64,000 nt of DNA. It comes from Candidatus Aenigmatarchaeota archaeon (GTDB taxonomy: Archaea; Aenigmatarchaeota; Aenigmatarchaeia; CG10238-14; SpSt-28). Position numbers and translations under genes: made by a program. The notes beneath the pieces are model-generated. The model did no database searches. It had not been told where the DNA came from and worked only from the letters and a program-made list of their open reading frames with translations. The stretch covers positions 44,159 to 108,158 of the forward strand of contig JAWAZZ010000001.1 of NCBI GenBank assembly GCA_038997305.1. Reading direction: 5' to 3'. This document shows positions 10,478 through 45,111 of this stretch, piece after piece (the first letter of the stretch is position 1; each line of letters opens with the position of its first letter).

Positions 10478-13505
<3,028 letters not shown>

Positions 13506-15994: not shown

Positions 15995-16007
15995 AAAATA
16001 TATTCTT

Positions 16008-18476: not shown

Positions 18477-18489
18477 AATATAAACTTAT

Positions 18490-19872: not shown

Positions 19873-20390
19873 GAAATTCTTAATATTAGGTAACCAATTT
19901 CCTCATCTGGCATAGGTATTGGCAAAACATAACTTTTTATCGTTTCTGAAGGTTTTAAATTATAACCATAGATTTCGTATAAGCTTTGGTTTTTATATAT
20001 AACTAGCTGCCATCTTTCTTTACCAATCATATTATCTAACATAGGATAAAGCAAATCTGAAGAATTATATGCTCCTAAAGCCATTCCATAATAAACAATT
20101 TTTCCTAAACCAAGATCTTCTTTAACTTTTTCTCTTTCACTTTCTTTCCATTTATTTAGAGTTAGTAGCGCATCTATCGATGTTTGTAAATAAGTTTTTT
20201 CTAATGTAGGTAATTTGGCTGTATAAACTGAAGCTAATGTTTTTAATGCTAAATCATCTATAACAGAAAATCTATGAAAATATTGGGATTTTGTTGAGAG
20301 TTGTGAAATGTAATACAATGTAATTACTATAACAATAGATGAAATTATTAAAATAATACCAATCCATATAATTTCACTTTGAAGTTTCAT
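19869..20390 (-). CDS. small protein with N-terminal TM helix (possible pilin-like or minor filament subunit)
   Basis: MKLQSEIIWIGIILIISSIVIVITLYY followed by a soluble ~140-aa domain. Co-oriented and overlapping the metzincin gene. Confidence 0.4.
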   Translation of the reverse strand: MKLQSEIIWIGIILIISSIVIVITLYYISQLSTKSQYFHRFSVIDDLALKTLASVYTAKLPTLEKTYLQTSIDALLTLNKWKESEREKVKEDLGLGKIVYYGMALGAYNSSDLLYPMLDNMIGKERWQLVIYKNQSLYEIYGYNLKPSETIKSYVLPIPMPDEEIGYLILRIS

Positions 20391-20419
20391 AAAATTAAAA
20401 TTAGTAAGGATATAATATT

Positions 20420-21748
20420 ATGTTAAAGTTACAAGTAGCACAATTTGCTTTTATAATATTTGCTATACTTTTTTTTCTTTTAAGTTTATATTTGTCATAT
20501 TTTCAATTTGGAAAAAGAATAGAAGAAATTAGCAATATAAGAACTATTGACATTTTTGAAAATTTGAAACATATTATAGATGGGTATGCGAAATTAGCAC
20601 TTTATTATGCTACAACTCAAAATTTTAGAGAAGAAAGTCATGTATGGATTCAAAATGGATTCAATCCGCTAGAGTTTGAACTTTTAAAAGAATGCAAAGA
20701 AAATTACACTACATTTTTCTTTAATCAATATCTTTCAAAATTTAATGTTAATTTACCAGTTAATATAGAAATTAAAAAAGTAAACAGATGCTTTTTTGAT
20801 TTAAAAGAAGAAAATGTTTTTAGTGGCTTGAACGATGAGGGAAATTTTTCTGTTTTTTGCAATTCTACTAACGTAAAAATTTATATAAATGAAACATTTC
20901 TTTTAGACTTTATTAATTCTTCTAACTTTATAACTAACAACAGGTATTGGTATCTTTATAGAAAGTTTTATGAATGGGCTAAAGAAAATGCAGATAAATT
21001 TGTGGCTTGTGTCTGTTCATTAGTAAAATCTTGTGCAACCTGTAATGCAATAGAAACATGTTATAAAGGCTTATTAGAAAGTTTGAGAAATAAGTTTAAA
21101 GATGATAAATATGTTGAATGTAATACAGATCCTACTCCTTGTTGCTATCAAGAATATGGCGATTTATGTAAATTACCAGATGTTTGTCAAGCATGGCAAA
21201 ATAGATGTTATGTTGCAGATAAGTTGGATTGTCCTATACTAGAAGAATCAGATGAGAAAAAAACACACGGCTATAAAAATCATAACGAAAACAACTACTT
21301 AATAGAATTTTCTAAAAATGTAGTTCTTTCTAATCCTCAAAATTATGTTACCGAATTTTATTGTGAAAGTTGTATATGGCAAGAGAATAGAATAGAAACT
21401 CATAGAAGATATTATTGTATAGATTATAAGTACTATGAATCAAGTCCTTCTGGTCCAAAACCAATAGAATTTACTGCGATAGTTTATGCTGGCTTAAAGA
21501 ACTATGTTTCTTGCATTTCTAAAGTCAAAAATAAGTGCGAAAGTATAACCACAGAATGTGAAAATTGTAATGATGTTGGAGGTAAAACTATATGTGATAA
21601 ATGTATTTTAAAAAACTGTGAAAAAAAGGGATGTAAAGAATGTTGGTTAGAGTGCGAAGAATGTGAAGTTAAGAAATTAAATGGAGAATTCGAAGTTATC
21701 CAGTGTAAAAAATGTAAGAATAAGCCAGATGATGTCTGTCCAAAATGA
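20420..21748 (+). CDS. membrane-anchored Cys-rich protein
   Basis: N-terminal TM with more than 35 Cys. C-terminal CENCNDVGGKTICDKCILKNCEKKGCKECWLECEECE cluster. Confidence 0.5.
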   Translation: MLKLQVAQFAFIIFAILFFLLSLYLSYFQFGKRIEEISNIRTIDIFENLKHIIDGYAKLALYYATTQNFREESHVWIQNGFNPLEFELLKECKENYTTFFFNQYLSKFNVNLPVNIEIKKVNRCFFDLKEENVFSGLNDEGNFSVFCNSTNVKIYINETFLLDFINSSNFITNNRYWYLYRKFYEWAKENADKFVACVCSLVKSCATCNAIETCYKGLLESLRNKFKDDKYVECNTDPTPCCYQEYGDLCKLPDVCQAWQNRCYVADKLDCPILEESDEKKTHGYKNHNENNYLIEFSKNVVLSNPQNYVTEFYCESCIWQENRIETHRRYYCIDYKYYESSPSGPKPIEFTAIVYAGLKNYVSCISKVKNKCESITTECENCNDVGGKTICDKCILKNCEKKGCKECWLECEECEVKKLNGEFEVIQCKKCKNKPDDVCPK

Positions 21749-22131
21749 AAACAATAGAAATAATATTAGTTTTAATTTTTTCAGTTTTTGGATTAGTACT
21801 TCTATTAAATTATATCTTTGGAATAAAATTTATTAAATTTGAAAGCGAAGAATTGACATTTCTAAAAAAAGAGGATTTTTTGTTTAAGATTAATGAGTTA
21901 GTTTCTAATTGTTTAAATAAAAAGACTAACAAAAGAGAAATTTGCTATTACGTCTATTACAAAGGTTTGCAAGATGTTTCTTCTGAAGAAATACTTTCAA
22001 AAATAATTCCTGAAAACAGAAATAAAATTAAAATAACTTTCGAAAAATTGATTAGCAACGAAAAAATTATAATAATTTATGTTCCTTTTGATTTGGTTGA
22101 AATTGTAAAATATTCTGAAATATCAAAATAA
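21745..22131 (+). CDS. small protein with N-terminal TM helix (pilin-like candidate)
   Basis: MKTIEIILVLIFSVFGLVLLLNYIFG plus a ~100-aa domain. Start overlaps the upstream stop (ATGA). Confidence 0.4.
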   Translation: MKTIEIILVLIFSVFGLVLLLNYIFGIKFIKFESEELTFLKKEDFLFKINELVSNCLNKKTNKREICYYVYYKGLQDVSSEEILSKIIPENRNKIKITFEKLISNEKIIIIYVPFDLVEIVKYSEISK

Positions 22132-22135
22132 TTTT

Positions 22136-24193
22136 ATGATAAGTGAACAAAAATTAGAACAATTAAAAAAAGAGTTTTCGACATATTATTTGGAATTTTA
22201 TTTAAAAGAAATAGAAAAATCTGCAAGAAGAAACTGGTATGAAAAACTTTGTGCAATTTCTTCAAAAATTTTACCTATAAAGGCATATCCTAAAAAACTT
22301 TCAGAAACCATAATTTTTTCTAATTTGAATGTTTTACCGAATGAAGTTGTAAGTTTAACAATACTTTCTTTTTTAATTCTTTTTGGAGTTTCTTTAATTC
22401 TATATTTCATTTTTACTGATTTGGGAATTTTTGTTTTTGCTTTGCCAATAGGCATTTCATACATTCTATATACTTATCCAGATTTTAAGGCAAAAGTAAA
22501 TAGAATTCAAACAAATTCAGAAGCAATAAAAATAATTACTTATCTTGTTTTATATTTAGAAACAATTCCAAATTTTGAAGGAGCAATAGATTTTGCAGCA
22601 AGAAGAGTTAAAGGAATTATTAGCGATGATATGAAAAAAATTTCTTGGGATATTAGAACTGGAAAGTTTTCGACATTAAAAGAAGCATTAGAGCATTATA
22701 TTCCAAAATGGTTAAAATGGAATGAAAATTTTGTGAGAGCTTTAATTTTGTTATCAAATATATCTTATGTAACTTCTAGTGAAGAAAGAAAAACATTATT
22801 AAGAAAAACATTAGATTTTATTTTGGCAAAAAACTTAGAGGAAACGAAAATTTATGTAGAAAAAGTCAGAGGTCCTATAACTATTTTGTTTCTTTTTGGA
22901 TTATTGATGCCATCTATAGGTTTAATAATGTTTCCTATGATTTCTGTATTTTTGCATTTTAGCGTAAAACCATCTTACATAATTTTTGGATATTTGGTTG
23001 TATTACCTCTTATGAACTATTACTTAATAACTAGAGTAATTTCTTTAAGACCAGGAGCTTTTCTTATAGTAGATATATCTAAGCATCCAAAATTGCCTCC
23101 AGAGAATTATTTTTATTATGGAAATGTTTTAATACCCATAATACCTCTATCAATTTTAGTTTTTGCATTGGTTAGTTTTTATGGAATAAATCATATAGGA
23201 AATTTTTATATCGAGTTTAATAGGCAGCTAGAAATAAATCCTAAAAAAGCAGAGGAAATGCTAAGAGCCGAAAATAATATTCAAAACTATGCTGGCTTAG
23301 CTGCTAGCTTTTCCATAACATTAGGTTTTGGTCTAGCCGCTTTTTTATACTTTTATCTAAACTCTTTTCAAAAGGTAAGAATTAGAAAAGAAGTTAAGGA
23401 TATTGAAGAAGATCTACCAAACTTGTTAATTACTAGTGGAAATTTCTTAGAAGCTGGGTATCCTTTTGAAAAAACGATAGAAAAAACTTTGGAGGAATAT
23501 GAAAGATTAGGAATGAAAGAAAAAGCTGGTTATAAATTTTATTCTTTGTTAAAGGAGAGAATTGTAAAGTTTGGAGAAAACATATATGAAGCAATCTTTG
23601 GAAGTAATGGTTTGATTTTTTATTTTCCATCCGTTTTATTGGAAGAAGTCTTTAGAATAATAACTGAAACTTCTAAAAAAAGTGTTAGAAGCGCTGGAAC
23701 TATTGCTAAAACAATTTCTAGATATTTAGAAAATATTTGGCAAACAGAATTTAGATTGAAAGAATTATTGGCAGATGTTAGAGGAAATTTAAAAATGCAA
23801 GCTCAATTTTTAATTCCTATAATTACAGGAGTTATTAGTGCTACTGGAATTTTTATAATAAGTTTATTATCTTTCTTAGCAGATTACTTAAGTAGGTTTG
23901 AAAAAAGTTTCGGAATAACTTCAGGAATTTCTGAGGTTATTAATGTTATGGTCGGAGATTTTAAAAGAGTAATACCAATGCCTTTATTACAAGCCGTTGT
24001 TGGATGTTATACTGTAATAGCAATAATATTGATGTCTTACTTGCTTAGTGGAGTTGAAAATGGATTTGATAGAGTTGCTAGAGATGATGAAATTTCTCAA
24101 AACCTAAAGTTTGGTTTGATAATATACTTTATAATAGGAATAGCATCTCTAATAGTTTTTGCAAATATAATATCTTCTTTACAATTAACATAA
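22136..24193 (+). CDS. polytopic membrane protein, TadC/FlaJ/GspF-like platform protein candidate
   Basis: 685 aa built as (helical cytoplasmic domain + ~3 TM) x2, resembling type II/IV secretion F-domain platform proteins. Flanked by small N-terminal-TM proteins. The assignment is by architecture only. Confidence 0.4.
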   Translation: MISEQKLEQLKKEFSTYYLEFYLKEIEKSARRNWYEKLCAISSKILPIKAYPKKLSETIIFSNLNVLPNEVVSLTILSFLILFGVSLILYFIFTDLGIFVFALPIGISYILYTYPDFKAKVNRIQTNSEAIKIITYLVLYLETIPNFEGAIDFAARRVKGIISDDMKKISWDIRTGKFSTLKEALEHYIPKWLKWNENFVRALILLSNISYVTSSEERKTLLRKTLDFILAKNLEETKIYVEKVRGPITILFLFGLLMPSIGLIMFPMISVFLHFSVKPSYIIFGYLVVLPLMNYYLITRVISLRPGAFLIVDISKHPKLPPENYFYYGNVLIPIIPLSILVFALVSFYGINHIGNFYIEFNRQLEINPKKAEEMLRAENNIQNYAGLAASFSITLGFGLAAFLYFYLNSFQKVRIRKEVKDIEEDLPNLLITSGNFLEAGYPFEKTIEKTLEEYERLGMKEKAGYKFYSLLKERIVKFGENIYEAIFGSNGLIFYFPSVLLEEVFRIITETSKKSVRSAGTIAKTISRYLENIWQTEFRLKELLADVRGNLKMQAQFLIPIITGVISATGIFIISLLSFLADYLSRFEKSFGITSGISEVINVMVGDFKRVIPMPLLQAVVGCYTVIAIILMSYLLSGVENGFDRVARDDEISQNLKFGLIIYFIIGIASLIVFANIISSLQLT

Positions 24194-24194
24194 T

Positions 24195-24554
24195 ATGCTA
24201 GCATTAGATACTGTTTTTTTGGTTTTGATTGGTATAGTAACTATAATAGCTGTTTCTAGTTTAATACTTGCTTATAAGGATAAAGTTATTGATTTTTTCT
24301 ACAGATTTTTTTCTAAAGAAGAAAATATAAACTATTGCTATACAACATACTACGAAGGAATCGAAGATGTTAGTAATTTATGTAGAATTTGCTTGAATTT
24401 GGGAAAGAAGTTAAAGAATAATTGCTATTGTTTTGTCATTTATTCTAACAATGTTTATTCTGATTTATGTGAAAATAGATGTTCTATTTCAGATAATAAA
24501 ATTTGGCTAATAAAGTATGATGTTTCTAAAAATAAAGTTTTTATTGAGTGCTAA
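24195..24554 (+). CDS. small protein with N-terminal TM helix and Cys-containing domain (pilin-like candidate)
   Basis: MLALDTVFLVLIGIVTIIAVSSLILAY followed by a ~90-aa domain with 6 Cys. Confidence 0.4.
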   Translation: MLALDTVFLVLIGIVTIIAVSSLILAYKDKVIDFFYRFFSKEENINYCYTTYYEGIEDVSNLCRICLNLGKKLKNNCYCFVIYSNNVYSDLCENRCSISDNKIWLIKYDVSKNKVFIEC

Positions 24555-25020
24555 CATTGTTAGAATATCTTATTAAATCAAAATATATACTATATTCGTT
24601 TATGCCGAAGAAATCTCTTTTAATGACTTTTGTCTCATCGTAATAAACTATAGGTATAGAAATATTACAAGAAAGTCTTTCACAATAAACTCTTTTGTCT
24701 TTCATCCATAAGCATAAGAAATTTCCTACTGTCAAATTCTTATTGTTAATGTATTCTTCTATTAAATCTCTAGAAATTTTTTCTATATCATCTATTGCGA
24801 ATATTGCAAAAAGATTTTGATTCACTATTAATTTCTCTTTTGTTTGAGTATATGGAAAACTCCAGCAAAGGTTTTGAACTTGATTATAAAATATTTTGAA
24901 TTGCTCTTCGACTTTTTTGTTGCTTTCGTTTTTAAAATGCAAAGATAATATATAAAAGATTGAAGATAAAAGTATTGAAAGAATTATTACTGCAAATATT
25001 ATTTGAAATGGGATTTCCAT
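24541..25020 (-). CDS. small protein with N-terminal TM helix (pilin-like candidate)
   Basis: MEIPFQIIFAVIILSILLSSIFYILSL plus a soluble domain. Confidence 0.45.
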   Translation of the reverse strand: MEIPFQIIFAVIILSILLSSIFYILSLHFKNESNKKVEEQFKIFYNQVQNLCWSFPYTQTKEKLIVNQNLFAIFAIDDIEKISRDLIEEYINNKNLTVGNFLCLWMKDKRVYCERLSCNISIPIVYYDETKVIKRDFFGINEYSIYFDLIRYSNNVSTQ

Positions 25021-25023
25021 AAT

Positions 25024-25458
25024 TTAATAATTGATTACAAGTACACTTTCTTTTTTGCAATTAAAGATTATTAGTGCATTACTTAAATAAGGATTAAAGA
25101 GATTGGCATCAACATAATACAGTTTTCCTTTATATTCTATAGGAAAAAATTTTGGTAAAGAGGCTTGGGATAAATCCCCATCTGTAACTATAAAATAGCA
25201 AGTAACATAACCATTTTTACAATTATAGTTTTCAACGCTTTCTCTTATGCAAGAATTTATTAATTCCAAAAAAACCTCGCTAGTTGGTTCTTTTTTAAAA
25301 TGTAGATACGTTACTTCTTTGAATTTTTTTGATTGGTTAATTTCACTAAAATATGACATTACAAAAGATTGTATAGCTAAATATATCATTAGAATTACTA
25401 TTGTTGCTATCATACTTATAAGCATTACAAAAACAACGTTTATGGCAAGTAATTTCAT
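25024..25458 (-). CDS. small protein with N-terminal TM helix (pilin-like candidate)
   Basis: MKLLAINVVFVMLISMIATIVILMIYLAI. The track start is TTG, so I moved it to the ATG. Confidence 0.45.
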   Translation of the reverse strand: MKLLAINVVFVMLISMIATIVILMIYLAIQSFVMSYFSEINQSKKFKEVTYLHFKKEPTSEVFLELINSCIRESVENYNCKNGYVTCYFIVTDGDLSQASLPKFFPIEYKGKLYYVDANLFNPYLSNALIIFNCKKESVLVINY

Positions 25459-25459
25459 A

Positions 25460-25993
25460 TTATGCAATAACTTCTATAGCATCTATATTGTGATTATATT
25501 TTATTATAACTATAGAATCTTTTGATATTTCATAATCTTTTACTTTCCAAACTACATCATCTCTATATCCACAATCAAAAGTTTTCATTTGTAAACTTTT
25601 ACAACCATCGTATTGTTTAATAAACATAGAAACATTTTCTGGAAAAATTTTTATATTTTCTTGCATGGGTGAGAAATCTATTTCATAGCAGGTATAATCT
25701 CTATCATAAACTTTATATCGTTGAATTGTTTGTATGCATTCGAAAAGGTATGAAGTAAATTTAGAGATTGCCTCTTCTTCATTATTAGCATAAAACTTAA
25801 TTCTTTCAGTTATTAAATTTTGAGATTTACAATATTCTGGAATAGTTTCTTTAGGAAAGATTTTGAGATAAACATTGCAATATAAATAATTTTGAATCCT
25901 TTCTCTTAAAGCTATTAAAATTGAAATTGAAATAACTATTGCAGCTATTATTATTATAAAAAACCAAGTTGTTTCTATTGCAATTAGCTTCAT
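25460..25993 (-). CDS. small protein with N-terminal TM helix (pilin-like candidate; MK|LIAIE resembles a prepilin cleavage motif with Glu at +5)
   Basis: [29 protein letters not shown] plus a ~140-aa domain. Confidence 0.45.
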
Positions 25994-26035
25994 AATGTAT
26001 TTAAATTTTTGAATAGAAATATTTTATCTAATTTT

Positions 26036-26401
26036 ATGGTTCAACCAAAATCTAAAAAGCCTAGAAAACAAAGAAAATTTTTGTATAATGCGCCTTTGCA
26101 TTTAAGAAGAAAAATGTTAGCTGCACATTTAAGTAAAGAATTAAGAGAGCAATTAAAAAGAAGAAGCTTGCCAGTTAGAAGTGGTGATGAAGTTAAAGTT
26201 ATGAGAGGAAAGTTTAGAGGCAAAGTAGGTAAAGTGGTAAAAGTAGATTATAAAAAGTATAGGATTTATGTTGAAGGTTGTACTGTAAAAACTGCTAGAG
26301 GAGAAGAAAAATTAGTTCCTATACATCCGTCTAAAGTAATGATAGTAAAATTAAACTTAGAGGATAAATGGAGAAAAGAAGCTTTAGGAATTAAAGCATA
26401 A
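26036..26401 (+). CDS. rpl24: 50S ribosomal protein L24 (uL24)
   Basis: [37 protein letters not shown] plus KOW motif [16 protein letters not shown]. Start set to the ATG at 26036; the track start at 26009 is TTG. Confidence 0.85.
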
Positions 26402-26425
26402 TTTTTATAATAATTTTTTTGCAAT
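26402..26425 (+). terminator. T-rich putative terminator downstream of rpl24
   Basis: tttttataataatttttttgc lies directly after the stop codon. Confidence 0.3.
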
Positions 26426-26509
26426 AGTTCGAGGTTTTATAATATTTTTACAGGTTTGTAGCTTATGATTGTTAAAAAATATATATTTGAAACTTAATAA
26501 TAATATTTT

Positions 26510-26881
26510 ATGTCATTGGTAAACAAAATAGGTAAAAAATTAAATTTATCTATATTTAAAAAAATTTCTGCGCTTTTTTTGATTTCTTTGCTATTGTTAT
26601 CGACATTTAAAATAATAATTGAGGACAAGTTAGTACCTAAAATAAAACTTTCTGACATTTCTTTATCTGATGACAACTTAAAAAGAAGTGGTATATTTTA
26701 TTGTAGTAATGGAAATCCTGTAACTTATAATGGTCAAAAAGGATTTTTAATGGTTATAAGTAACCCCAATGGATTAAACCTAAAGTTTAGAATTTATCTC
26801 TACGATGACGTCAATTATCAGAGCTACGATCCAGATCCTAAAGTCATATCTATGGAATATGGTATGGAAAGTCTTTTATAG
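26510..26881 (+). CDS. signal-peptide-bearing ORF; probably the 5' part of the downstream giant gene, separated by a single-base frameshift
   Basis: N-terminal KK-hydrophobic signal/anchor. The frame of 27004..30588 stays open upstream to 26842 with no ATG. One extra T in the TTTT run at 26874..26877 would fuse the two frames (...EYGMESLFIATGTNFGRE...). Confidence 0.4.
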   Translation: MSLVNKIGKKLNLSIFKKISALFLISLLLLSTFKIIIEDKLVPKIKLSDISLSDDNLKRSGIFYCSNGNPVTYNGQKGFLMVISNPNGLNLKFRIYLYDDVNYQSYDPDPKVISMEYGMESLL

Positions 26882-27003
26882 CTACAGGAACTAACTTCGG
26901 TAGAGAAATTATTACAGACGCGAGTTATGCAATAGTTTTTTTACCTTTACCATTTTCTGATCGTGCCGCCGATATTTCTTTAGTTTTCTCTAATGTTCAA
27001 GAT

Positions 27004-30000
27004 TTGGAAAAGAAAGGATTCCAATTTAACTCTATCAACGATTGTCAAAAATTAGCAGATTTATTATATACTTCATTTTTACTTTCTTATGCTGATCTTG
27101 GAAACAAGCTCTTATCAGATATTATAAATTTTCAATTAACATTATCTTCAGCAATTTTAGAGGGTATTTTAAGGTATGCACAAGGCACAGCAGTTTTAGC
27201 TGGCACACAAACTAACACTAAGATATATTTGTTTAACGATATACATCAAAACGCAAGAAATTTTATATATGAGGTTGTTGAAATCTTAAAGGAAAATGGT
27301 TTGGAACCTGGAAAAGATTTTTGGATTGTGGAGAAAAAATTCAATGATTACGAGTACTATACTTTAGAATTCTCTAGTAATGCAAAAAATAAGATTAATA
27401 AGAACATTAAAATAATATTTGCTGGAGATGTTTTTGATAAGAGAGAAGGAGATATGGAAATGGACGAATTTAAAGAAAAACTCGATAAAAGAGTGTTAGA
27501 AAAACTCGATGAAAATGCTAAAAGTAATTTTTTCAAAAATCTAAATGTTTTAGGGGAGAAGAGGGAGGATATAGGTAAGAATTCGAGGATACTTTCTCAC
27601 ACAATTTTATCGATAATGGACAGTTTAGAAGAATTGTTAGGTAGTGACAATGTAATAAGATTATTAGGTAATCACGATGTTTATCAATACTATATAGTAG
27701 ATAGTGAGAGAGTGAAGAAACTTACGGTAACTATGTCTCATTCTATTCCTTTCACGAGGGGAAAAGATCTTGTTGAATATTACTGGAATAAAGGAAGGTT
27801 GATTTATGTTTATTATGAAGATGGAATTGTAAATATTTATACTAATTCCCAATCAGGATTTTTAATTAAGGAATTTTTAGAAAGATTAGCTAAGAGTTTA
27901 GAAGGCAAAAATTTAAACGAATTGAGTGAAAATGAGTTAAAAAGAATAATCAAAGAGGTTAGTGAAGAATTTGATAGAAATGCAAAATTTATTGCAGGTG
28001 AAAATAGTGAAGTTGGTATTGTGAAATATACATATGAAAGATTTATGAATTTTGAGGATGATGTGAACAAACAAACTACTGATGTGAATGATAATTTGAA
28101 TAAACTAAGTGAAATTATAAAAAAGAAATTTGGGAATAGGTTTAAATTTGTAATAATAACTGGACATACACCAGTCAGTTCGTTGAATTATTATTATTCC
28201 TCTCCGAATATTGATTTATTTATAACTGATAATCCAGAAAAGAGAGCTTCCAGGTCTCTGATAATTTTCGATAAAGAGAAAATTAGTGTGCGTGTTATTC
28301 CTCATGGCGTGGATTATTTTGTTAGTATTCAGAAACCCAAATTAAATGTGGGTGGAGGAGGTTTATCTTCTGAGGATGTTAAAAAAATTAAGAATACTAA
28401 AAGTCAAATAGATGTTGCTAGAGAGATAAATGGGGAAATTTCTAAGGCCGAAGAAGAAGTTGAAAAGGCTAAAACTATATCTGAGAGATTAGATGTACTT
28501 AAAAGAGTGTTTTCGAGACTTAAGGATTTCTTTTCTAAAAAATCACAAGAAGTTGATAGAGTTTTTATTGATCCCGAACCTACGCAAACTAGACCTATAA
28601 AGCAAGCATTAGATGCAAGCATACAAAAGTCAGAGGAAGGATTACGGGCAGTACAAAGTGGTAATTTAGAAGAGGCAAATAAGAAGTTTGATGAGATAAG
28701 GAAAGAATTTAAACAACTAGCAGAAAATATATTAAAAAATGCAGGTGATAGAATTCAAGAAGTATATCAAAAACTTCAGGGAAATTCTCAAGCGGAACAA
28801 AGTTTAAATAAAAATATTGAGGAATCCATACGAAATCAGCAATCTGAATTATCAAAACAAGGAGAGAATATCCAAAGAACAGCTGCATCGACAGATGTTG
28901 CAAAGAGCGTAACAGAAAGTACAGAAAAACTCGCTAGTTCTCAACTTTCTCAACAGGGGAGAAGTCTTTTACAAAAATTAAAAACATCTGTGAGCGCTTT
29001 TAAAACTTTTTCAACTACAATTAATAATTTAGCATCTAAAATCTCACCCCTTTTAATATTCGTACCTATGATAGAAATAGGCAGAAATTTAGAACTATAT
29101 GAAATCCCATATGGAGAAGAAGTTTCTTTGGCATTAACTCTTGGTGGTATAATTGGATTGACTTTGCAAACCATATTGGCAATTAAAATTGCATTGGAGG
29201 CAGGAATTCGCGTCGCATTAGCTGTTGTTATTACTGGACCTTTTGGTTGGTTAAGTCTACTTGTTTTAGCCGCAATAATAGTTGCTATTGGTGCATTTAT
29301 GTGTTTTATCTATGTTACTCAAAGAGGTGGCGGTGATTTTGGACAGTGTTTACTGTATGGTATATCTTTCGGTACTGCAAAATATTGCGACCTATACGCG
29401 GCAAAATACTATTTTAGAGATATTAATGATTTTGACAAAAAAACTGAAAAACAAAAACCATCTGAATATACTTACTTTACAGTTTTGTATCCAGACTATA
29501 GGGAAATAAAATTATATGCTGAAGGAATACCTAGGATAGGTACTGAAAAATGTCCTGCAGATAATTATCTTGGTCCTATAAAGGTTTATGAAGGTCATAA
29601 TTACTTTATCAGAATAAAGCATTTGGGTAGTAATATGGAAAGATATGATTTAACAAAGTTCATAGTAGAAAAGGATGGAAGTGGGAGAAGCGAGGGGACA
29701 TTTTGTTTAACTTCTAAATCAAGTTGTAGCAAAGATGCAACGGACTTTCCATTCGAAGTTGGAAAACAATATTTAGTCATAATAGATGAAAGAGGATGGT
29801 ATATTGTAGAACCCTTAGGTAGCGGAATTAAGAAGAGCGTTCCTGTTGGTGTTCTATACATTTATGAAAACAAAAATGCATGTAGTAATCTTGGCGGAAA
29901 ATGTGTAGATGTAAGTAAGGCACAAGATCCTAAGCAAATAATATATCACGGCGTTTGTAAGGCTGGTGAGATATGCATTAAAGAATGTAAGAGCGATTCA

Positions 30001-30588
30001 GATTGTAGTAGTGGATATTTCTGTGATGCTGGAATATGTAAATCGCGTATAGGAGAAGAAGTTAAAAAATGCAATTCGCAAGGAAAGGTTTATATTGGGC
30101 ACGAATCAGAAAACAACAAATGTTGTGAGAGAGAAAAAGTAAATGTTATGATATGTGAAGGTAGTGATTGTCCTACTTATTCTTTTAGAGCAGAAGAATG
30201 GATAACTCATAAAGATACTATTTTAGATTATTTGACAGGAAAGATAGATTATTCGCAATTCAGCAACTTAGTTAGTGCTGATGTAAGACTAAAGCTACTA
30301 CAATTACAATCTACAAAGAACATAATGTGCTGTGGAGATTGGAAAAAGTGTGTGTATAATGGAAAATGCTATAATGAAAATAGTGTAGAAAAAATTAATC
30401 AAAAAGATTTTGTTTGTAAATTAGGCAAATGGATACAAATAGACTCTTGTAAGATTAATAGGGCATACGTACAGAATAATAATTTAATTTTAGAAGTTTC
30501 TTTGGGTTGTGGCGGAATAATTTCTGGTAATCAAGTTAATGTAGGAATAGAATGTAAGAGGATTAATAAAGATGGCCAGTGTGTATAA
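27004..30588 (+). CDS. giant multidomain membrane protein: calcineurin-like metallophosphoesterase domain + ~300-aa coiled coil + TM hairpins + C-terminal Cys-rich domain
   Basis: Phosphoesterase motifs in canonical order: DIH, GDVFDKREG (GDxxDR), GNHD, GHTP. A long heptad-like Glu/Lys/Gln region follows. Hydrophobic block LTLGGIIGLTLQTILAIKIALEAGIRVALAVVITGPFGWLSLLVLAAIIVAIGAFMCFIYV. The C-terminal ~450 aa hold more than 45 Cys. The annotated start is TTG; see the frameshift note on the previous feature. Confidence 0.6.
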   Translation: MEKKGFQFNSINDCQKLADLLYTSFLLSYADLGNKLLSDIINFQLTLSSAILEGILRYAQGTAVLAGTQTNTKIYLFNDIHQNARNFIYEVVEILKENGLEPGKDFWIVEKKFNDYEYYTLEFSSNAKNKINKNIKIIFAGDVFDKREGDMEMDEFKEKLDKRVLEKLDENAKSNFFKNLNVLGEKREDIGKNSRILSHTILSIMDSLEELLGSDNVIRLLGNHDVYQYYIVDSERVKKLTVTMSHSIPFTRGKDLVEYYWNKGRLIYVYYEDGIVNIYTNSQSGFLIKEFLERLAKSLEGKNLNELSENELKRIIKEVSEEFDRNAKFIAGENSEVGIVKYTYERFMNFEDDVNKQTTDVNDNLNKLSEIIKKKFGNRFKFVIITGHTPVSSLNYYYSSPNIDLFITDNPEKRASRSLIIFDKEKISVRVIPHGVDYFVSIQKPKLNVGGGGLSSEDVKKIKNTKSQIDVAREINGEISKAEEEVEKAKTISERLDVLKRVFSRLKDFFSKKSQEVDRVFIDPEPTQTRPIKQALDASIQKSEEGLRAVQSGNLEEANKKFDEIRKEFKQLAENILKNAGDRIQEVYQKLQGNSQAEQSLNKNIEESIRNQQSELSKQGENIQRTAASTDVAKSVTESTEKLASSQLSQQGRSLLQKLKTSVSAFKTFSTTINNLASKISPLLIFVPMIEIGRNLELYEIPYGEEVSLALTLGGIIGLTLQTILAIKIALEAGIRVALAVVITGPFGWLSLLVLAAIIVAIGAFMCFIYVTQRGGGDFGQCLLYGISFGTAKYCDLYAAKYYFRDINDFDKKTEKQKPSEYTYFTVLYPDYREIKLYAEGIPRIGTEKCPADNYLGPIKVYEGHNYFIRIKHLGSNMERYDLTKFIVEKDGSGRSEGTFCLTSKSSCSKDATDFPFEVGKQYLVIIDERGWYIVEPLGSGIKKSVPVGVLYIYENKNACSNLGGKCVDVSKAQDPKQIIYHGVCKAGEICIKECKSDSDCSSGYFCDAGICKSRIGEEVKKCNSQGKVYIGHESENNKCCEREKVNVMICEGSDCPTYSFRAEEWITHKDTILDYLTGKIDYSQFSNLVSADVRLKLLQLQSTKNIMCCGDWKKCVYNGKCYNENSVEKINQKDFVCKLGKWIQIDSCKINRAYVQNNNLILEVSLGCGGIISGNQVNVGIECKRINKDGQCV

Positions 30589-31651
30589 CATTAGAAAAAT
30601 CAATATTGAAAAAGGTGGAAAAAACATAGCTTTAATTATTTTTATGTTTTTACTTTCCTTTACTTCTTTTGGTTTATCCCAGCAAAATATGTTAAAATGT
30701 ACTAATAATTATCTATTGGTTTCTTGTTTAGTAGATAATTGCTATTCTGGAGTGGTTATTGTCAATAATTCTTATGAAGTTTACACTATATCAATAGATA
30801 TAAATTCAAACTCATTTAATATTCAACCAAAAGGCAGTGAAATATTTTTTACGGTTATTTGTCAAGCTCCACAAAAAGTAGAAGAGTATAAGTATAAAAT
30901 AAATAATGTTATACTTTCGGATACATTCCAAAATGTTAATAACCAACTTATAGTTGGGAGAGGATGCTATAGCATAAGAACAGAAGTTAGTGGAAGCACT
31001 AGCTTTCTATATCTAGAAAAATATAGATATTCTGAAGGTGGATGTGAAGAAAGTCAAAAAGTTCAAACATTAAAAATTCCTTTGAAAAGCAAGGATGTGA
31101 TAATTCACGTAAATTGTAAATGCATAGAAAACAAAGGACTCTTATTGTCTATTGGAGATTTTGCTAGTGTAAACGAAGTAACATTAGCATCTTCAGATGA
31201 AGTAGTAATTTATTTGAAAAAAGGATGGAACATGATATCTAATCCGTCTGATAAGCCAATAACTTTAGAAGATTTTAGGAAAAGCGGATGTAATATTAGG
31301 TCTATTTGGAAATATGAAAACAAGAAATGGCAAAGACCTACTGAAATATCAAACGATGCAAAAGGTTATTTTGTTTATGCAACTAACGATTGTGTATTAA
31401 GAGTTAAAAAACCATCAAAATCGAATGTAATATTAACTAACGAACTTTCAATTACTTTACAAAAAGGATGGAATTTAATTAGAGGTATTGATGGGTTAAC
31501 TTGTGAAGATTTAGAGAGACTAGGATGTAAGTTATCATCAAAATCAAAAAACAAATGTTTTTGGATATATCAGAATAAGAAATGGGTAAGAACAAATGTG
31601 ACTGAGATGCTATATGGGTATTGGGTATATTGTAGAGAAATTGTTAAGTAA
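30572..31651 (+). CDS. secreted protein with N-terminal Cys-containing domain and two C-terminal ~62-aa aromatic GWN repeats
   Basis: Signal anchor ALIIFMFLLSFTSFGLS. C-terminal repeats LKKGWNMISNP...WKYENKKWQRP...KGYFVYATNDC and LQKGWNLIRG...WIYQNKKWVR...YGYWVYCRE. Confidence 0.6.
   Translation: MASVYNIRKINIEKGGKNIALIIFMFLLSFTSFGLSQQNMLKCTNNYLLVSCLVDNCYSGVVIVNNSYEVYTISIDINSNSFNIQPKGSEIFFTVICQAPQKVEEYKYKINNVILSDTFQNVNNQLIVGRGCYSIRTEVSGSTSFLYLEKYRYSEGGCEESQKVQTLKIPLKSKDVIIHVNCKCIENKGLLLSIGDFASVNEVTLASSDEVVIYLKKGWNMISNPSDKPITLEDFRKSGCNIRSIWKYENKKWQRPTEISNDAKGYFVYATNDCVLRVKKPSKSNVILTNELSITLQKGWNLIRGIDGLTCEDLERLGCKLSSKSKNKCFWIYQNKKWVRTNVTEMLYGYWVYCREIVK
31211..31640 (+). repeat. tandem pair of ~62-aa GWN(L)-W.YENGKW-GKGYW.Y modules (coding)
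   Basis: Protein-level repeat visible in the translation of 30572..31651. Confidence 0.6.
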
Positions 31652-31688
31652 TATGGATAAATATTTATTGTTAAACAAAATAATAATT

Positions 31689-34600
31689 ATGAATGGAAAA
31701 TTCTTAAATGTAATACTATTTTTAATTTTCTTTTTGAGTTTTGGTATAGTTTATTCTGAAAATTATGTTTTAAGTCTTAAAAAGGGATGGAACTTGATTT
31801 CGATACCCTTAGCTCCATCTAATATAGAGTCTGTAAAATGTGATATATCTTCTATTTGGTCATATGAAAACGGTAAATGGAAAAAATTGAGTAATATTAA
31901 TCAGTTAGTTCCTGGTAAAGGTTATTGGATATATGTTAGAAGTGCTACATGCGATATCGTTATCTATGGAGATAGAATAAATTATAATCCAATAGAAAAA
32001 TTAAGTAAAGGATGGAATTTAGTTGGTATTGGTTCTAATGAAATATATGTTAAAGATTTAAAAAATGTTTGTAAAAATATTACTAGAATTTGGAGTTATG
32101 AAAATGGCAGATGGATAAAATTAAATGATGATGATAAATTAATTCCTGGTAAAGGATATTGGATATATAGTAGAGATGAATGTGATTTAGGAAGAAGCAA
32201 GTTTGTAGGTTCTTCTAGTTGTCAATGTTATGATAATCTTAAAATAAATCCGGATAAAACTACATTTTCTCCTGGAGAAACTATAAATTTCGAAAGTGTT
32301 TGTGGTGATCAAGGAAATCTTATAACAATAGTTTTGAAAGATCCTAGTGGTAGTCAAAAAGCATCTGCATATTCTACTTGTCCTAGTCCAACTAGTAAAG
32401 CAAGCGGTAGTTATACATTTAAATCTACTGATCCTGCAGGAACTTGGAAATTAATAATGGATGTGAGTGGAGTTACTTGTGAGCATTGTGAAAAAGAAAT
32501 AACATTGCAAGGAACACAACAACAATGTAGTGTATCAGTATCTAATATAAATATTCAACAAACAAATACACCTACTTGTGGTCAATCAGCAACACTTTCA
32601 GTATCTATATCTGGTACAGCAACAAATTGCCAATCTTTAAAAGCAGAAATTTATGAAGATCAAACTTTATTAAAAACAATATCATGTAGCATTTCGAATA
32701 ATAATTTACAATGTTCTGACACATTAACTTTAACAGTCTCTTCTAATAATCAAGAAGCAGACTTTGATATAGTAATTAAAGATAGTAATAACAATGAAAA
32801 GGCTAGAAGTCCTAAGAGAATTACATTACAATGTCAATCACAACAACAATGTCAAGTAACTTTAAATTCGTTATCTCTAAATCCATCATCCACGAACCAA
32901 TGTGGTCAATTAATTCCATTAACTATAACTGTTAGTTATTCAGCTAGTGGAAATTGTCAAAACAAATATATTACAGTTTATGATCATGATAATAATGTTT
33001 TAGGTTATATTCCAATAGATACTTCTAAAACAAGTGGCTCATTAAATTTAAATACTTACAACGTTCCTTCAAAAAGTGATAAATATTTAATTTGGGCCTT
33101 AGCAGAAGGTTCCTCACAACAAGTTTCTGCATATTTAGATGTTCAATGTCAATCACAACAACAATGTCAAGTAACTCTTAATTCATTATCTCTAAGTGAA
33201 TCAACAGCACAATGCAATCAACAAATTTCATCATTAACAGCAACTGTTAGTTATTCAGCTAGTGGAAATTGTCAAAATCAAAACATAATAGTTTATAAAC
33301 CAGATGGAAGTGTTTTGTGCAATATTCCAATAGATACTTCCAAAAATAGCAATTCATGTTCAGCTAGTTATACTGCTCCATCGCAAAGTGGTATACATAC
33401 ATTCAAAGCTGTTTATGGAACTCAAGAAAAAACAGCAAGTTTAAATGTTCAATGTCAAAGTCAAGAAACTAAAATAGAAGTTTCTATAACTGCAGATAAA
33501 ACAACTTCTTATGTTAGAGACAAAATTAAAATAAGAGCAACTGCAAGATTCACCAATCTAAAAGAAACAGGAACATATGAGTTGTGGATATGTAGAGAAG
33601 GGTTATCATATTGTTTAGCATCTGCTGCAAAGGTTTGCACAGATTCAAATTGTCTTAGAGAATTAGAGCAAAACGGTCTAACAAAAGAATATGAAGCTAC
33701 TTCAGATTGTAGCGGAAGTTATAAATATTATGCAAAAGTTTATTTAGGAACTGATAAAGAACTTGCCAAGAGTAATCCAATAGAAGTTAATTTTAAGCTT
33801 CATGAAGGTTTAAAGATAGATGAATTAAAAGTTGAACCTCCAAAAGCAGATTCAGAGCAAAAAATAATAATAACTTTAAACCCAGATACATATAGAATAC
33901 TAAATGAATATTATTGTGAAGGATGTAAAGGTTTTAATACAGGTGATTATTTTGTATCAGTACCAGAATATTATGATCCTAATGGAAATAAAGTACAACT
34001 TTTGATACCAGCTTGTAACGAAAATGATATAAGACAAAACAATGGTAAGTGTGTAATAGATAAGTATTTTAGTGGTAGTCCACTTAAACTGTTTAATAAA
34101 CCAGGAACATATAAAGTAAGGGCAGTTTTAATGAGAGAGTGTGTAAGAGATGCTACTACTACAGAAAAGTTGACCGAAGGTTGGTTTACTGTAACAATTT
34201 CTTCACAAAATTGTGTTGTTAACATCTCTGAGGTTAAAGTTGAAAAAGTAGATTCTAATATACCAAATTGTGGCCAAACTATAAATTTGAAATTCACGGT
34301 TAATGGAAAGCATACTTCTTGTTCTAGTAGCGATATCGCTGCAATAATTTACGAAGGTTCTAGTGAGATTGGAAAATTACAATGTAATGTAAATAATGAT
34401 GGTACATTTAGATGCGAAGGACAACTTCAATATAAGATAATAGTTTCAGGAACCAAAACATTCAAAGCAAAAGTTCTTGATAAAGAAAAAGAGAGTAATC
34501 AAATAGATTTATCTTGTCAACAACAGCAACAACAATGTACATCTGGTCAAACAAAATGCGAAAATAACAAATTATACGAATGTGTTAATGGACAATGGCA

Positions 34601-35339
34601 AGACAAAACTCCTTCGTGTCCACAGGGTCAACAGTTTGTATGTGTAGATCAAACGCGTGGAGAATGTAGACAACAGCAACAACAATGTCAATTAAAATCT
34701 GTAAATATAGAAAGTGTTAGACAATTAACAAAATGTGATGGGACAAAAGTTAGATACGAAGTAACTGTTTTTACAGATTATGAAAATTGCGAACAAATGC
34801 CTAAGGTAACTCTAGAATATGGAAGAAAAGATCAATTAAGACCTTCTAAAACACAACAACCAAAATCTGTTAGTAATGATGGAAAGAGAGCTATTTTTGA
34901 GGTAGAAATTAGTGGAGTTAGACATGGAACGCAGGTTTTCTTTAGAGCAACTGCTGAAATTTCTGGTCAACAGAAATCTACTGTCGATGAAGAAAGAACT
35001 GTAAATTGTTATGTAGAAGAAGATACATATAAATGTATTGTCGATAACAACAGGGTAAAAATAGTAGCTTCTAACAACCAAGTTATATGGGAAAAAGAAA
35101 ATACACAGACCATTTCATACTATTGTAAAAAAGAGAGTATAAGTGCTAGAAAAGGTATAACATCTAGTGATGGTGATTTTGAAGATTTCTTGAATGCTTT
35201 AGTTGGAGCAAGAAAAGTTTTTACTTGCAGTTTTTCAAACGGAAGGATAGAATGTAATATTGGTAATTTAAATGTGAGAGGTAGCACTGTTTGTATTCTA
35301 GTAGACAATAATAATGCTATATGTAAAACAGTTAGTTAA
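31689..35339 (+). CDS. giant secreted Cys-rich modular surface protein (2 GWN repeats, four ~104-aa Ig-like tandem repeats, Gln-runs, Cys6 knot repeat)
   Basis: Signal peptide MNGKFLNVILFLIFFLSFGIVYS with start at ATG 31689 (31653 is also possible). It contains the modules listed separately below. Confidence 0.65.
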   Translation: MNGKFLNVILFLIFFLSFGIVYSENYVLSLKKGWNLISIPLAPSNIESVKCDISSIWSYENGKWKKLSNINQLVPGKGYWIYVRSATCDIVIYGDRINYNPIEKLSKGWNLVGIGSNEIYVKDLKNVCKNITRIWSYENGRWIKLNDDDKLIPGKGYWIYSRDECDLGRSKFVGSSSCQCYDNLKINPDKTTFSPGETINFESVCGDQGNLITIVLKDPSGSQKASAYSTCPSPTSKASGSYTFKSTDPAGTWKLIMDVSGVTCEHCEKEITLQGTQQQCSVSVSNINIQQTNTPTCGQSATLSVSISGTATNCQSLKAEIYEDQTLLKTISCSISNNNLQCSDTLTLTVSSNNQEADFDIVIKDSNNNEKARSPKRITLQCQSQQQCQVTLNSLSLNPSSTNQCGQLIPLTITVSYSASGNCQNKYITVYDHDNNVLGYIPIDTSKTSGSLNLNTYNVPSKSDKYLIWALAEGSSQQVSAYLDVQCQSQQQCQVTLNSLSLSESTAQCNQQISSLTATVSYSASGNCQNQNIIVYKPDGSVLCNIPIDTSKNSNSCSASYTAPSQSGIHTFKAVYGTQEKTASLNVQCQSQETKIEVSITADKTTSYVRDKIKIRATARFTNLKETGTYELWICREGLSYCLASAAKVCTDSNCLRELEQNGLTKEYEATSDCSGSYKYYAKVYLGTDKELAKSNPIEVNFKLHEGLKIDELKVEPPKADSEQKIIITLNPDTYRILNEYYCEGCKGFNTGDYFVSVPEYYDPNGNKVQLLIPACNENDIRQNNGKCVIDKYFSGSPLKLFNKPGTYKVRAVLMRECVRDATTTEKLTEGWFTVTISSQNCVVNISEVKVEKVDSNIPNCGQTINLKFTVNGKHTSCSSSDIAAIIYEGSSEIGKLQCNVNNDGTFRCEGQLQYKIIVSGTKTFKAKVLDKEKESNQIDLSCQQQQQQCTSGQTKCENNKLYECVNGQWQDKTPSCPQGQQFVCVDQTRGECRQQQQQCQLKSVNIESVRQLTKCDGTKVRYEVTVFTDYENCEQMPKVTLEYGRKDQLRPSKTQQPKSVSNDGKRAIFEVEISGVRHGTQVFFRATAEISGQQKSTVDEERTVNCYVEEDTYKCIVDNNRVKIVASNNQVIWEKENTQTISYYCKKESISARKGITSSDGDFEDFLNALVGARKVFTCSFSNGRIECNIGNLNVRGSTVCILVDNNNAICKTVS
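31775..32195 (+). repeat. tandem pair of ~62-aa GWNL-W.YENGKW-GKGYW.Y modules (coding); about 95% nt-identical to 41530..41862 over ~335 nt
   Basis: LKKGWNLISIPLAP...IWSYENGKWKKL...GKGYWIYVRSATCDI and LSKGWNLVGIG...IWSYENGRWIKL...GKGYWIYSRDECDL. The nucleotide comparison was done by eye. Confidence 0.7.
32510..33760 (+). repeat. four tandem ~310-nt (~104-aa) coding repeats, each beginning QCQSQQQCQV / QQQCSV
   Basis: Repeat starts near 32516, 32829, 33144 and 33449, with conserved ends and variable middles. The TVSYSASGNCQN core recurs. Confidence 0.6.
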
Positions 35340-35379: not shown

Positions 35380-36087
35380 ATGTTGAACATCAGAGGCTTA
35401 AAAGGTTTTACTGCGATAGAAATTGTCTTTCTAATTTTTATTTTAATAGTTGTCGTGTTAGTTGTAATTCAAATGATTACTAGATATGTTAATCCAGGAA
35501 AAATTAATCCTTATATTGAAAATATAGAAGAATTAGCGAAAAAGGATTATATGAGGCAATATTGTGATAATTTGTGCAATTCTATTAAAACTGCTACTAG
35601 TGAAAGAGAAAGATTGTTTGCAATGGCAAGATGGTGTATGGAAAATATAAAAGACAGAGGAAAAGATTATATAGATATAATTGAAGATGGAGTAAAAGGA
35701 TTTTATGTTATTGGTGGTTTACCTTATTGTGAAGCTGGCACATATTGTTTTCATTTCTTCTCTTGCGATGTAGGAATAACTTTGGATTTAAAGGAATGTA
35801 GGAGAATTCTTTGCGAATATTATACTCAACAATTGGGAGATACAAAAAAGGCTAGCGAGGCTATAGTAAATATCATAAACTGGGGAAAATGTAATGTCAA
35901 CAAAGAACAATTATCTGGTAAACCATTGCTTTACTCAAGCGCTAGATGGTGGTATGATAAATATTTTAACATAACAGATGAAAATGGCGAACTCAAAGAT
36001 TTTTGTAGCGTTCTCATAGCTGGTGGAGATATAGAGGGAATAGTTAGCGAAGGTGAAGAGGAAGGCTCTCCTCCAATGCCATCATAA
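35380..36087 (+). CDS. type IV pilin-like protein (class III signal peptide) with Cys-rich globular domain
   Basis: MLNIRGLKG|FTAIEIVFLIFILIVVVLVVIQ has the canonical prepilin cleavage motif (Gly-1, Phe+1, Glu+5, then a ~20-aa hydrophobic helix). A ~190-aa domain with about 10 Cys follows. Confidence 0.55.
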   Translation: MLNIRGLKGFTAIEIVFLIFILIVVVLVVIQMITRYVNPGKINPYIENIEELAKKDYMRQYCDNLCNSIKTATSERERLFAMARWCMENIKDRGKDYIDIIEDGVKGFYVIGGLPYCEAGTYCFHFFSCDVGITLDLKECRRILCEYYTQQLGDTKKASEAIVNIINWGKCNVNKEQLSGKPLLYSSARWWYDKYFNITDENGELKDFCSVLIAGGDIEGIVSEGEEEGSPPMPS

Positions 36088-45021: not shown

Positions 45022-45111
45022 AAATTTATTTCTAAAAAATATAAATTCAATTTGTTATATTAGATAAAAAAATTTAGAAAGGTATTTATATCTTGCTTGG
45101 GTAAATATATA

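Follow-up and report, generated by a model that had tools for sequence, protein, structure and literature searches.

A putative PPP-type phosphoesterase domain in a large membrane protein gene, frameshifted in several natural alleles, of a Candidatus Aenigmatarchaeota archaeon

Structure of the Giant Gene

The DNA analyzed here, in the following called the window, is a stretch of 64,000 nucleotides from contig JAWAZZ010000001.1 of a Candidatus Aenigmatarchaeota archaeon (assembly GCA_038997305.1). It carries a giant gene on the forward strand, most of which is covered by the open reading frame (ORF) 27004..30588 encoding 1,194 aa. A preliminary description of this ORF had proposed a protein combining a calcineurin-like metallophosphoesterase, a long coiled coil, membrane helices and a Cys-rich ectodomain. 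The ORF is real and constitutes the 3' 88% of one gene. Its start at 27004 is an artefact of ORF calling, since the frame runs on upstream and near-identical contigs fuse 26510..26881 to it. The intact gene extends over 26510..30588, and intact alleles encode 1,357 aa with an export signal first. This signal, the N-terminal domain behind it and the frameshift described below had been missed in the preliminary description. The start at 26510 is shared with P0001 and P0007 (1,357 aa each; 99% identical). The N-terminal signal segment has a Kyte-Doolittle hydropathy of 2.41, and export signals were also found at the N-termini of the homologues P0002 and P0004.

The following features were assigned to the gene (residue numbers are those of P0001 unless ORF residues are named):

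26510..26620, plus strand: true gene start; Lys-rich N-terminus, then a hydrophobic signal peptide or signal anchor MSLVNKIGKKLNLSIFKKISALFLISLLLLSTFKIII
26574..26580, plus strand: poly-T tract (T7) within the signal-peptide codons; T6 in two other assemblies, which causes a frameshift
26627..27114, plus strand: N-terminal domain, predicted beta-rich (residues ~40-200), with the conserved Cys pair C65 and C177
26858-26862, plus strand: 5-bp tandem duplication TATGG causing a frameshift; the sole indel in a 14,139-nt alignment to contig L001
27211..28350, plus strand: putative metallophosphoesterase domain of a divergent PPP/lambda-phosphatase type (residues ~233-612) with three large, mostly helical insertions
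27238..27246, plus strand: motif I, DIH (D-x-H), ORF residue 79, preceded by strand-like KIYLFN; DLH in P0002
27424..27444, plus strand: motif II, GDVFDKR (G-D-x-x-D-x-R), within GDVFDKREG at ORF residue 141, preceded by IKIIFA
27667..27678, plus strand: motif III, GNHD, ORF residue 222, preceded by NVIRLL; same in P0002
27844..27846, plus strand: motif IV position, VNIYTHSQ in the five other near-identical alleles examined and VNIFTHAQ in P0002; Asn (AAT) in the window
28162..28173, plus strand: motif V, GHTP, ORF residue 387, preceded by FKFVIIT; IITGHTP in P0002
28363..29064, plus strand: predicted helical, coiled-coil-like stalk of ~230 aa (residues 617-850), rich in E, K and Q, without Cys
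29119..29316, plus strand: hydrophobic membrane region (869-934) with two clear transmembrane (TM) helices, 872-890 and 915-933, separated by a marginal segment
29326..30588, plus strand: C-terminal ectodomain (C-domain), predicted beta-sandwich (~964-1118) followed by disulfide-rich modules (~1120-1357); 27 Cys

In the window the gene is split by the TATGG duplication into ORF 26510..26881 (123 aa) and ORF 27004..30588, which without the duplication form one frame. Contig L001, the contig of P0001, aligned to positions 17737..31880 with 99.36% identity and this single indel. The duplication is absent from all four other contigs compared (L001, L096, L097 and L098). Programmed frameshifting was rejected as the cause of the split, the lesion being a simple 5-bp tandem duplication that these four contigs lack. 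The NCBI annotation of this metagenome-assembled genome (MAG) lists two separate genes, MEM5827959.1 (123 aa) and MEM5827960.1 (1,194 aa). The 1,194-aa "protein" in the annotation represents part of a disrupted gene.

The Phosphoesterase Domain

The phosphoesterase motifs DIH, GDVFDKREG, GNHD and GHTP were located in canonical order at ORF residues 79, 141, 222 and 387, as the preliminary description had stated. In the intact alleles and in P0002 the complete series of five motifs (DxH, GDxxD, GNH[DE], H and GH) is present in order. Each motif is preceded by a hydrophobic, strand-like segment as in a real calcineurin-like fold. In 20,000 composition-preserving shuffles the ordered motif set, searched with a pattern that left out the lone His of motif IV, did not occur once (0/20,000), and the pair GD..D followed by GNH[DE] occurred in 1-2 of 20,000.

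Further evidence comes from the comparison of P0001 with P0002. All 13 catalytic-motif residues (D242, H244, G304, D305, D308, R310, G385, N386, H387, D388, H444, G550 and H551 of P0001) are invariant, while the identity over the domain amounts to 29% (hypergeometric P = 5.7e-8). This conservation carries the signature of selection on an active site.

The motifs were also aligned by hhalign with a reference PPP alignment (A5) consisting of lambda NinI, E. coli ApaH and eight phage NinI-like phosphatases. Motif II, which reads GDYGDSR in P0002, was paired with GDLVDRG of lambda phosphatase, motif III with GNHE/GNHD of the PPP set and motif V with GHTP of lambda-type phosphatases. At a relaxed threshold the His of VNIYTHSQ fell on the invariant His139 of lambda phosphatase. 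The family alignment A2 matched lambda phosphatase and ApaH with a probability of 58% (E = 9.7e-5) over motifs II-III only, and the trimmed region with 33%; in relaxed or global mode all five motifs were aligned in order, with a global probability of 90%. Metallophos (PF00149) was among the top sub-threshold Pfam matches of the window ORF, P0001 and P0002 (E-values 0.002-0.05), and the NCBI name of P0002 is "metallophosphoesterase".

Several results weigh against this assignment. The preliminary description had named failure in a profile search as grounds for giving it up, and all three Metallophos scores do fall short of the gathering score of 21.5 bits (window ORF 17.9, P0001 14.5, P0002 19.1). 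Local hhalign probabilities reached just 33-58%, and a hidden Markov model of the family domain matched lambda phosphatase and ApaH at the motif level alone (0.5-3 bits). No phosphoesterase was retrieved from NCBIfam or by PDB sequence searches with the N-terminal half, either as single sequence or as profile; PDB matches of this half to phosphomannomutase and cystatin were regarded as chance. The spacings between motifs I and II (62 aa), II and III (81 aa) and IV and V (107 aa) are far above typical values; the fold, whose compatibility with the spacing had been proposed as a second check, would need three large insertions. An AlphaFold2 (AF2) model of the N-terminal 612 aa, computed from a two-sequence alignment, was uninterpretable (predicted local distance difference test, pLDDT, 45.6). 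On the favorable side, the top PDB Foldseek matches of this poor model were WipB and WipA, which have the PPP fold, at a non-significant level (E = 0.014, TM-score 0.19). WipA is a documented case of a PPP fold that accommodates a helical, coiled-coil insert (PMC5454105).

Taken together, the motif residues and their placement by hhalign support the metallophosphoesterase identity proposed earlier, and the Pfam threshold does not. The domain is probably a PPP-type phosphoesterase that has diverged strongly and contains three large insertions, its set of catalytic residues being complete. If active, it would extend the known sequence diversity and the range of architectures of PPP-fold enzymes while escaping the curated profiles.

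Homologues of the Giant Protein

An exhaustive phmmer search of 1.84 billion representative proteins yielded five matches:

P0001, 1,357 aa, Logan: essentially self (the query's own cluster)
P0002, 1,489 aa, GCA_044343115.1: E = 9e-16, 28% identical
P0004, 1,424 aa, contig with 42% G+C: match over the C-terminal region
P0005, 558 aa, JGI metagenome: membrane region and start of the C-domain
P0003, 3,244 aa: match confined to query residues 44-75, nine repeats; disregarded

P0003 was set aside as a compositional repeat match. Beyond the query's own cluster this leaves P0002, P0004 and P0005, that is four related clusters, and none of the relatives among the 1.84 billion representatives is named. 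The domain combination is indeed not known from characterized proteins, as had been remarked from the ORF. A word-indexed homologue search with the whole ORF returned the near-identical cluster only. Pattern scans of genome and metagenome contigs with family alignment A1 gave nothing, and those with alignment A3 picked up L005 alone, a fragment whose organism is of the same kind as that of P0005. All taxon-labelled clusters belong to hot-spring Aenigmatarchaeota (DPANN), in agreement with the NCBI names of the cluster members.

The comparison of domain order suggested in the preliminary description was carried out with these homologues. The alignment of P0001 with P0002 covers both proteins over their whole length (blastp E = 6e-10 across the N-terminal 750 aa, 2e-28 across the C-terminal part). 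P0004 has the signal, N-domain, stalk, membrane region and C-domain; its enzyme region shows neither motifs nor detectable similarity, which is a point against the overall reading given below. Therefore, the enzyme is not essential to the family. In P0005 a short N-terminal helix is followed by the membrane region and C-domain only, and the enzyme region is absent.

The MAG GCA_044343115.1 contains, besides the 28%-identical P0002 in a compact cluster beside uS9 (L002, JAVZUT010000028.1), a 99%-identical copy of the gene next to uL24 (L096, JAVZUT010000014.1). These copies would be either true paralogues or the result of a bin mixing two related populations.

Flanking Domains, Stalk and Membrane Topology

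The N-domain is kept in P0002 and P0004 (blastp E = 6e-10 and 9e-8; hhalign 90% versus P0004), and C65 and C177 are invariant among its homologues. A low-confidence AF2 model placed strands at residues 61-174 and gave weak Foldseek matches to immunoglobulin (Ig) V-like structures. The composition score of the domain (+0.025 to +0.072) looks like that of exported proteins.

At the other end, the preliminary description had reported a Cys-rich C-terminus of ~450 aa with more than 45 Cys and EGF-like CxxGxC spacings. The region is Cys-rich; the Cys count was too high and the EGF-like spacings did not hold up. ORF 27004..30588 contains 29 Cys in total, 27-28 of them within the last 417-450 aa, and one exact CxxGxC. 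About 16 Cys of the C-domain are invariant across four homologues. An AF2 model from a four-sequence alignment reached a pLDDT of 80-93 at residues ~1120-1320 and was moderate for the beta-sandwich before them. Profile and PDB searches gave only sub-threshold matches of a cystine-knot-like or Cys-repeat kind (CarbpepA_inh 16.7 bits, Myxo_Cys_RPT 17.9 bits, PDB knottins E = 0.4-3.5). An EGF, sushi or knottin identity was rejected, fold searches having returned just generic Ig-like and helical matches. From its sequence and model the C-domain is read as an exported, disulfide-stabilized domain outside the known specific families.

Between the enzyme and the membrane lies the predicted stalk. Windows across residues 617-861 showed a hydrophobic periodicity of 3.5 residues (z = 3-6.5), and E, K and Q make up 30% of the segment. 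A coiled-coil-like segment was correctly recognized in the preliminary description; its length is ~230 aa with a Pro-rich kink (near residues 687-694, few Pro or Gly elsewhere) and not ~300 aa. NCBIfam matches to ZorA, ATP synthase subunit b and HofC were discarded as coiled-coil noise far below threshold. The hydrophobic region announced as about three helices was found at ORF residues ~706-771. Two TM helices are clear and the middle segment is marginal; a low-confidence AF2 model contains a two-helix hairpin (871-906 and 911-937).

The flanking domains are probably exported, and the side of the membrane on which the enzyme and stalk reside has to be weighed. Cys is absent from this module over 752, 868 and 905 residues in the three long homologues. 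In this genome cytoplasmic proteins contain 0.73% Cys and exported proteins 2.6-7.4%; even at the cytoplasmic rate, zero Cys in 752 aa has P = 0.004. In P0002 two additional TM-grade segments (206-224 and 941-959) exactly flank the module. A Cys-blind composition classifier scored the N- and C-domains as exported-like (+0.02 to +0.07) and placed the enzyme module at the class boundary (-0.018 to +0.001). On these grounds we lean slightly towards a cytoplasmic enzyme-plus-stalk module in a receptor-like layout between two exported domains, and would give this arrangement even odds. It is opposed by the would-be crossing segments of P0001 and P0004, which are not TM-grade. Their summed scores of ~7.3-8.8 (Hessa scale) correspond to the ~5th-25th percentile of soluble segments, and therefore simple hydropathy of the window protein favors an all-outside location.

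The leading alternative, which we consider possible and somewhat less attractive, is such an all-outside arrangement. The signal anchor would export the N-domain, phosphoesterase and stalk, the two-helix hairpin would anchor them and the C-domain would lie outside too, so that a stalked enzyme could cleave external or host phospho-compounds, for example in nucleotide or phosphate scavenging for a reduced symbiont. In the window protein and P0004 the signal segment and the two helices at 872-890 and 915-933 are the only TM-grade segments, the hairpin appears in the low-confidence model, and an acidic stretch before helix b together with K/R in the short b-c loop would suit an out-in-out path. 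The stalk of P0007 scores exported-like (+0.036), and extracytoplasmic metallophosphoesterases such as UshA and CpdB are well known. Against an external module speak its lack of Cys over 750-900 aa in three homologues, compared with uniformly Cys-rich exported proteins, the extra flanking segments of P0002, which would become exposed hydrophobic helices, and its composition, which in every homologue resembles that of exported proteins less than the composition of the flanking domains does. The N-terminal helix of P0005 was dismissed as a clue to the location of the stalk, because detectable homology starts only at the first hydrophobic segment.

Alleles and Selection

Three of six near-identical alleles (P0001, P0007 and P0011) are intact. 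The other three are frameshifted within the first 350 nt by two different lesions, namely a change from T7 to T6 in two alleles and the TATGG duplication in the window. T7 is present in the window, L001 and L098, T6 in L096 and L097, whose gene calls run 23-26 codons shorter. The motif IV codon is CAT (His) in five near-identical alleles and AAT (Asn) in the window allele alone. With both the 5-bp frameshift and the loss of this His, the window copy has probably lost its activity or been switched off.

Between the window and L001 the giant gene shows 0 synonymous and 9 nonsynonymous codon differences, in contrast to 51 synonymous and 18 nonsynonymous in all other genes pooled (Fisher P = 2.6e-5). 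When a divergent tract is left out, the other genes show 8 synonymous and 3 nonsynonymous differences (P = 0.0014 versus the giant gene). The ratio of 0:9 and the recurrent lesions therefore indicate that the giant gene is apparently under relaxed or diversifying selection and repeatedly disrupted. The lesions themselves could be phase (on/off) variation, recurrent pseudogenization or assembly error. Recurrent 5' frameshifts in near-identical natural alleles suggest that this surface protein is dispensable or variably expressed, and variable expression would bear on how such symbionts change their surfaces.

Of the 86 substitutions between the window and L001, 66 fall in 22500-24600 (ORFs 22136..24193 and 24195..24554), where a 685-aa ORF has 34 synonymous and 7 nonsynonymous differences. 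A more divergent strain seems to have contributed this region by recombination.

These alleles also bear on a second alternative, in which the domain is a phosphoesterase-derived pseudo-enzyme or structural spacer and the function, for instance adhesion or an envelope scaffold, lies in the membrane region, C-domain and partner protein. It agrees with the architecture of P0004, kept without motifs or similarity in the middle region, with the lack of this region in P0005, with a window allele that tolerates His to Asn in motif IV, with the frameshifts in half of the alleles and with the exclusively nonsynonymous differences between strains. Nevertheless, we regard it as unlikely, given that all 13 catalytic residues are strictly kept between P0001-type and P0002-type proteins at 29% identity and that the His to Asn change is confined to one allele which is itself frameshifted. 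Least probable by far is a mere coincidence of motifs in a low-complexity, AT-biased ORFan without kinship to metallophosphoesterases: the sub-threshold profile searches, the unconfident AF2 model and the atypical spacing would fit it, but the shuffles, the motifs being the best-conserved positions towards a 29%-identical homologue, the strand-like segments ahead of them, the independent arrival of three sequences at the same Pfam family and the placement on matching PPP motifs by hhalign all contradict it.

Gene Cluster and Genomic Setting

Downstream of the giant gene the following genes were found:

30572..31651, plus strand: partner gene, its start overlapping the stop of the giant gene; secreted, Cys-rich protein of 359 aa carrying two KGWN[LM]I modules
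31614..35339, plus strand: secreted, Cys-rich protein of 1,241 aa containing Ig-like repeats and QQQQ-Cys linkers; KGWNL double module at the N-terminus
35380..36087, plus strand: type IV pilin-like protein with the class III signal RGLKG/FTAIEIVF and a Cys-rich C-terminus; conserved in the cluster

Orthologues of the partner lie directly downstream in L002, L003, L004/L005, L096, L097 and L098, and each locus has, overlapping the stop codon of the giant gene, a gene that encodes a Cys-rich secreted protein of ~340-360 aa. Because P0004 and P0005 lack the enzyme motifs and the partner gene is present at every locus, the membrane helices, C-domain and partner appear to be the conserved core of the family and the enzyme module an accessory.

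The pilin-like gene has an orthologue in L002 (6114-6986, beginning KSKLFTAIEVVF) beside the partner gene of P0002, and L096 contains a 235-aa gene at the corresponding position. A giant protein with Q-rich linkers recurs among the loci alongside the pilin-like gene. In L002 the C-terminus of a protein similar to the product of 31614..35339 precedes P0002; ORF 31614..35339 itself gave weak Pfam matches to Big_3_5 and MG2. Genes for a pilus ATPase or platform protein were not seen in the 64-kb window. Three small minus-strand ORFs (24541..25020, 25024..25467 and 25460..25993) have N-terminal hydrophobic segments similar to that of the pilin-like protein.

Tandem KGWN[LM][IV] modules, ~75-80 aa apart, occupy the C-terminal half of the partner (30572..31651). 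The same double module is found at the N-termini of the giant Cys-rich proteins 31614..35339, 36155..38380 and 41358..43775, which measure 1,241, 741 and 805 aa. The module has no Pfam match; it may serve these proteins in common for docking or anchoring.

An island of genes for exported ORFan proteins containing 2.6-7.4% Cys extends from 13.5 to 43.8 kb, flanked by housekeeping genes; a few of these proteins gave weak VWA, beta-propeller or Ig-like matches. Adjoining the island, a DsbA/DsbC-like thioredoxin-fold gene (45097..46056) is compatible with extracytoplasmic disulfide formation in this archaeon. Within the island, a stretch of 60 nt or more from the start of the VWA-domain ORF 13572..14963 is repeated at 16008, inside ORF 15951..17798, and the translations of 13572..~13800 and 16008..~16240 are identical across the ~60 residues compared. 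Two surface proteins apparently share this N-terminal anchor module through a recent duplication.

The G+C content of the window is ~27%, and its TYW1 is 81-84% identical to that of hot-spring Candidatus Aenigmatarchaeota MAGs. A lone archaeal 23S rRNA gene (10479..13504) has 53% G+C, with no 16S or 5S rRNA gene in the 64-kb window. Its isolation and its G+C content are consistent with a thermophile having unlinked rRNA genes.

Proposed Architecture and Role

From the gene structure, the frameshift, the homologues and the conservation of motifs and cluster, we infer an arrangement that comprises fold, catalysis, topology, substrate and biological role. The overall best explanation, to which we assign a probability of about 0.55, is a modular membrane protein in which a divergent PPP domain, a stalk and an ectodomain are combined and the enzyme module is tethered to a surface core. 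From the N-terminus, a Sec-type signal or anchor would be followed by the beta-rich N-domain with its Cys pair, the divergent lambda-phosphatase/PPP-type domain, the ~230-aa helical stalk, two or three membrane helices and finally the beta-sandwich with the disulfide-knotted ectodomain. The gene would be translationally coupled to that of the secreted KGWNL-module partner. The membrane helices, C-domain and partner would form a surface-exposed core, presumably for contact with a host or substrate, and the N-domain may also belong to this external unit.

The phosphoesterase would then be an accessory catalytic module held to the core via the stalk. By analogy with lambda phosphatase and ApaH it might hydrolyze a phospho-monoester or phospho-anhydride, that is a phosphoprotein or an Np(n)N-type nucleotide. 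Facing the cytoplasm, the module would make the protein a receptor-like signalling enzyme; facing outside, it would be a displayed scavenging or processing enzyme. The role of a transmembrane signalling or processing enzyme, as proposed in the preliminary description, is possible. A more elaborate version seems improbable, namely a phase-variable, contact-dependent receptor phosphatase of the PPP type, whose two disulfide-bearing ectodomains, bound to the KGWNL partner within a pilin-linked surface cluster, would sense contact with the host of this archaeal symbiont and steer the cytoplasmic enzyme via the stalk, with on/off switching by slippage of the T7 tract and small 5' duplications.

DPANN archaea live attached to hosts, and to our knowledge their attachment and sensing proteins are almost entirely uncharacterized ORFans. 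The family described here couples conserved exported domains to an apparently intact phosphatase active site, and its conserved cluster with pilin-like and giant Cys-rich proteins offers a concrete handle on the DPANN host interface.

Comparison with Known Systems

The enzyme superfamily is known; architecture, divergence and lineage restriction are new. With lambda phosphatase (NinI), ApaH and bacterial PPP enzymes the giant protein shares the motif set and its order (DxH, GDxxDR, GNH[DE], a lone His after a strand, and GHTP), including the conserved Arg of motif II. The known enzymes are soluble proteins of 220-280 aa, whereas the predicted enzyme described here measures ~380 aa with three insertions of ~30-100 aa, is embedded in a 1,357-aa membrane protein and stays below threshold in Pfam.

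In sensor kinases and SpoIIE-type membrane PP2C phosphatases, TM helices and a helical stalk link an ectodomain with a catalytic domain in the cytoplasm. These receptor-like enzymes and the giant protein, whose topology is a predicted one, would have in common exported domains for ligand binding, TM helices, a long linker of helical type and a catalytic phosphatase-type module. In contrast to them, the enzyme lies between two exported domains instead of at the C-terminus, and it would be of the PPP type and not a PP2C phosphatase or kinase.

Tetrabrachion of Staphylothermus marinus is a stalked archaeal surface protein carrying a bound protease. The likeness consists in a thermophilic archaeon and a long, Cys-free, membrane-anchored helical stalk bearing an enzyme. 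There is no sequence similarity or detected structural similarity between the two, and in the giant protein the enzyme is fused and a second, Cys-rich ectodomain follows the anchor.

Legionella WipA and WipB (PDB 5y9o, 5nny), the top structural matches, have a PPP fold into which a large helical hairpin or coiled coil is inserted (PMC5454105). Unlike the giant protein, both are effectors secreted by bacteria and have neither TM segments nor Cys-rich domains, and the non-significant match to them derives from a low-confidence model.

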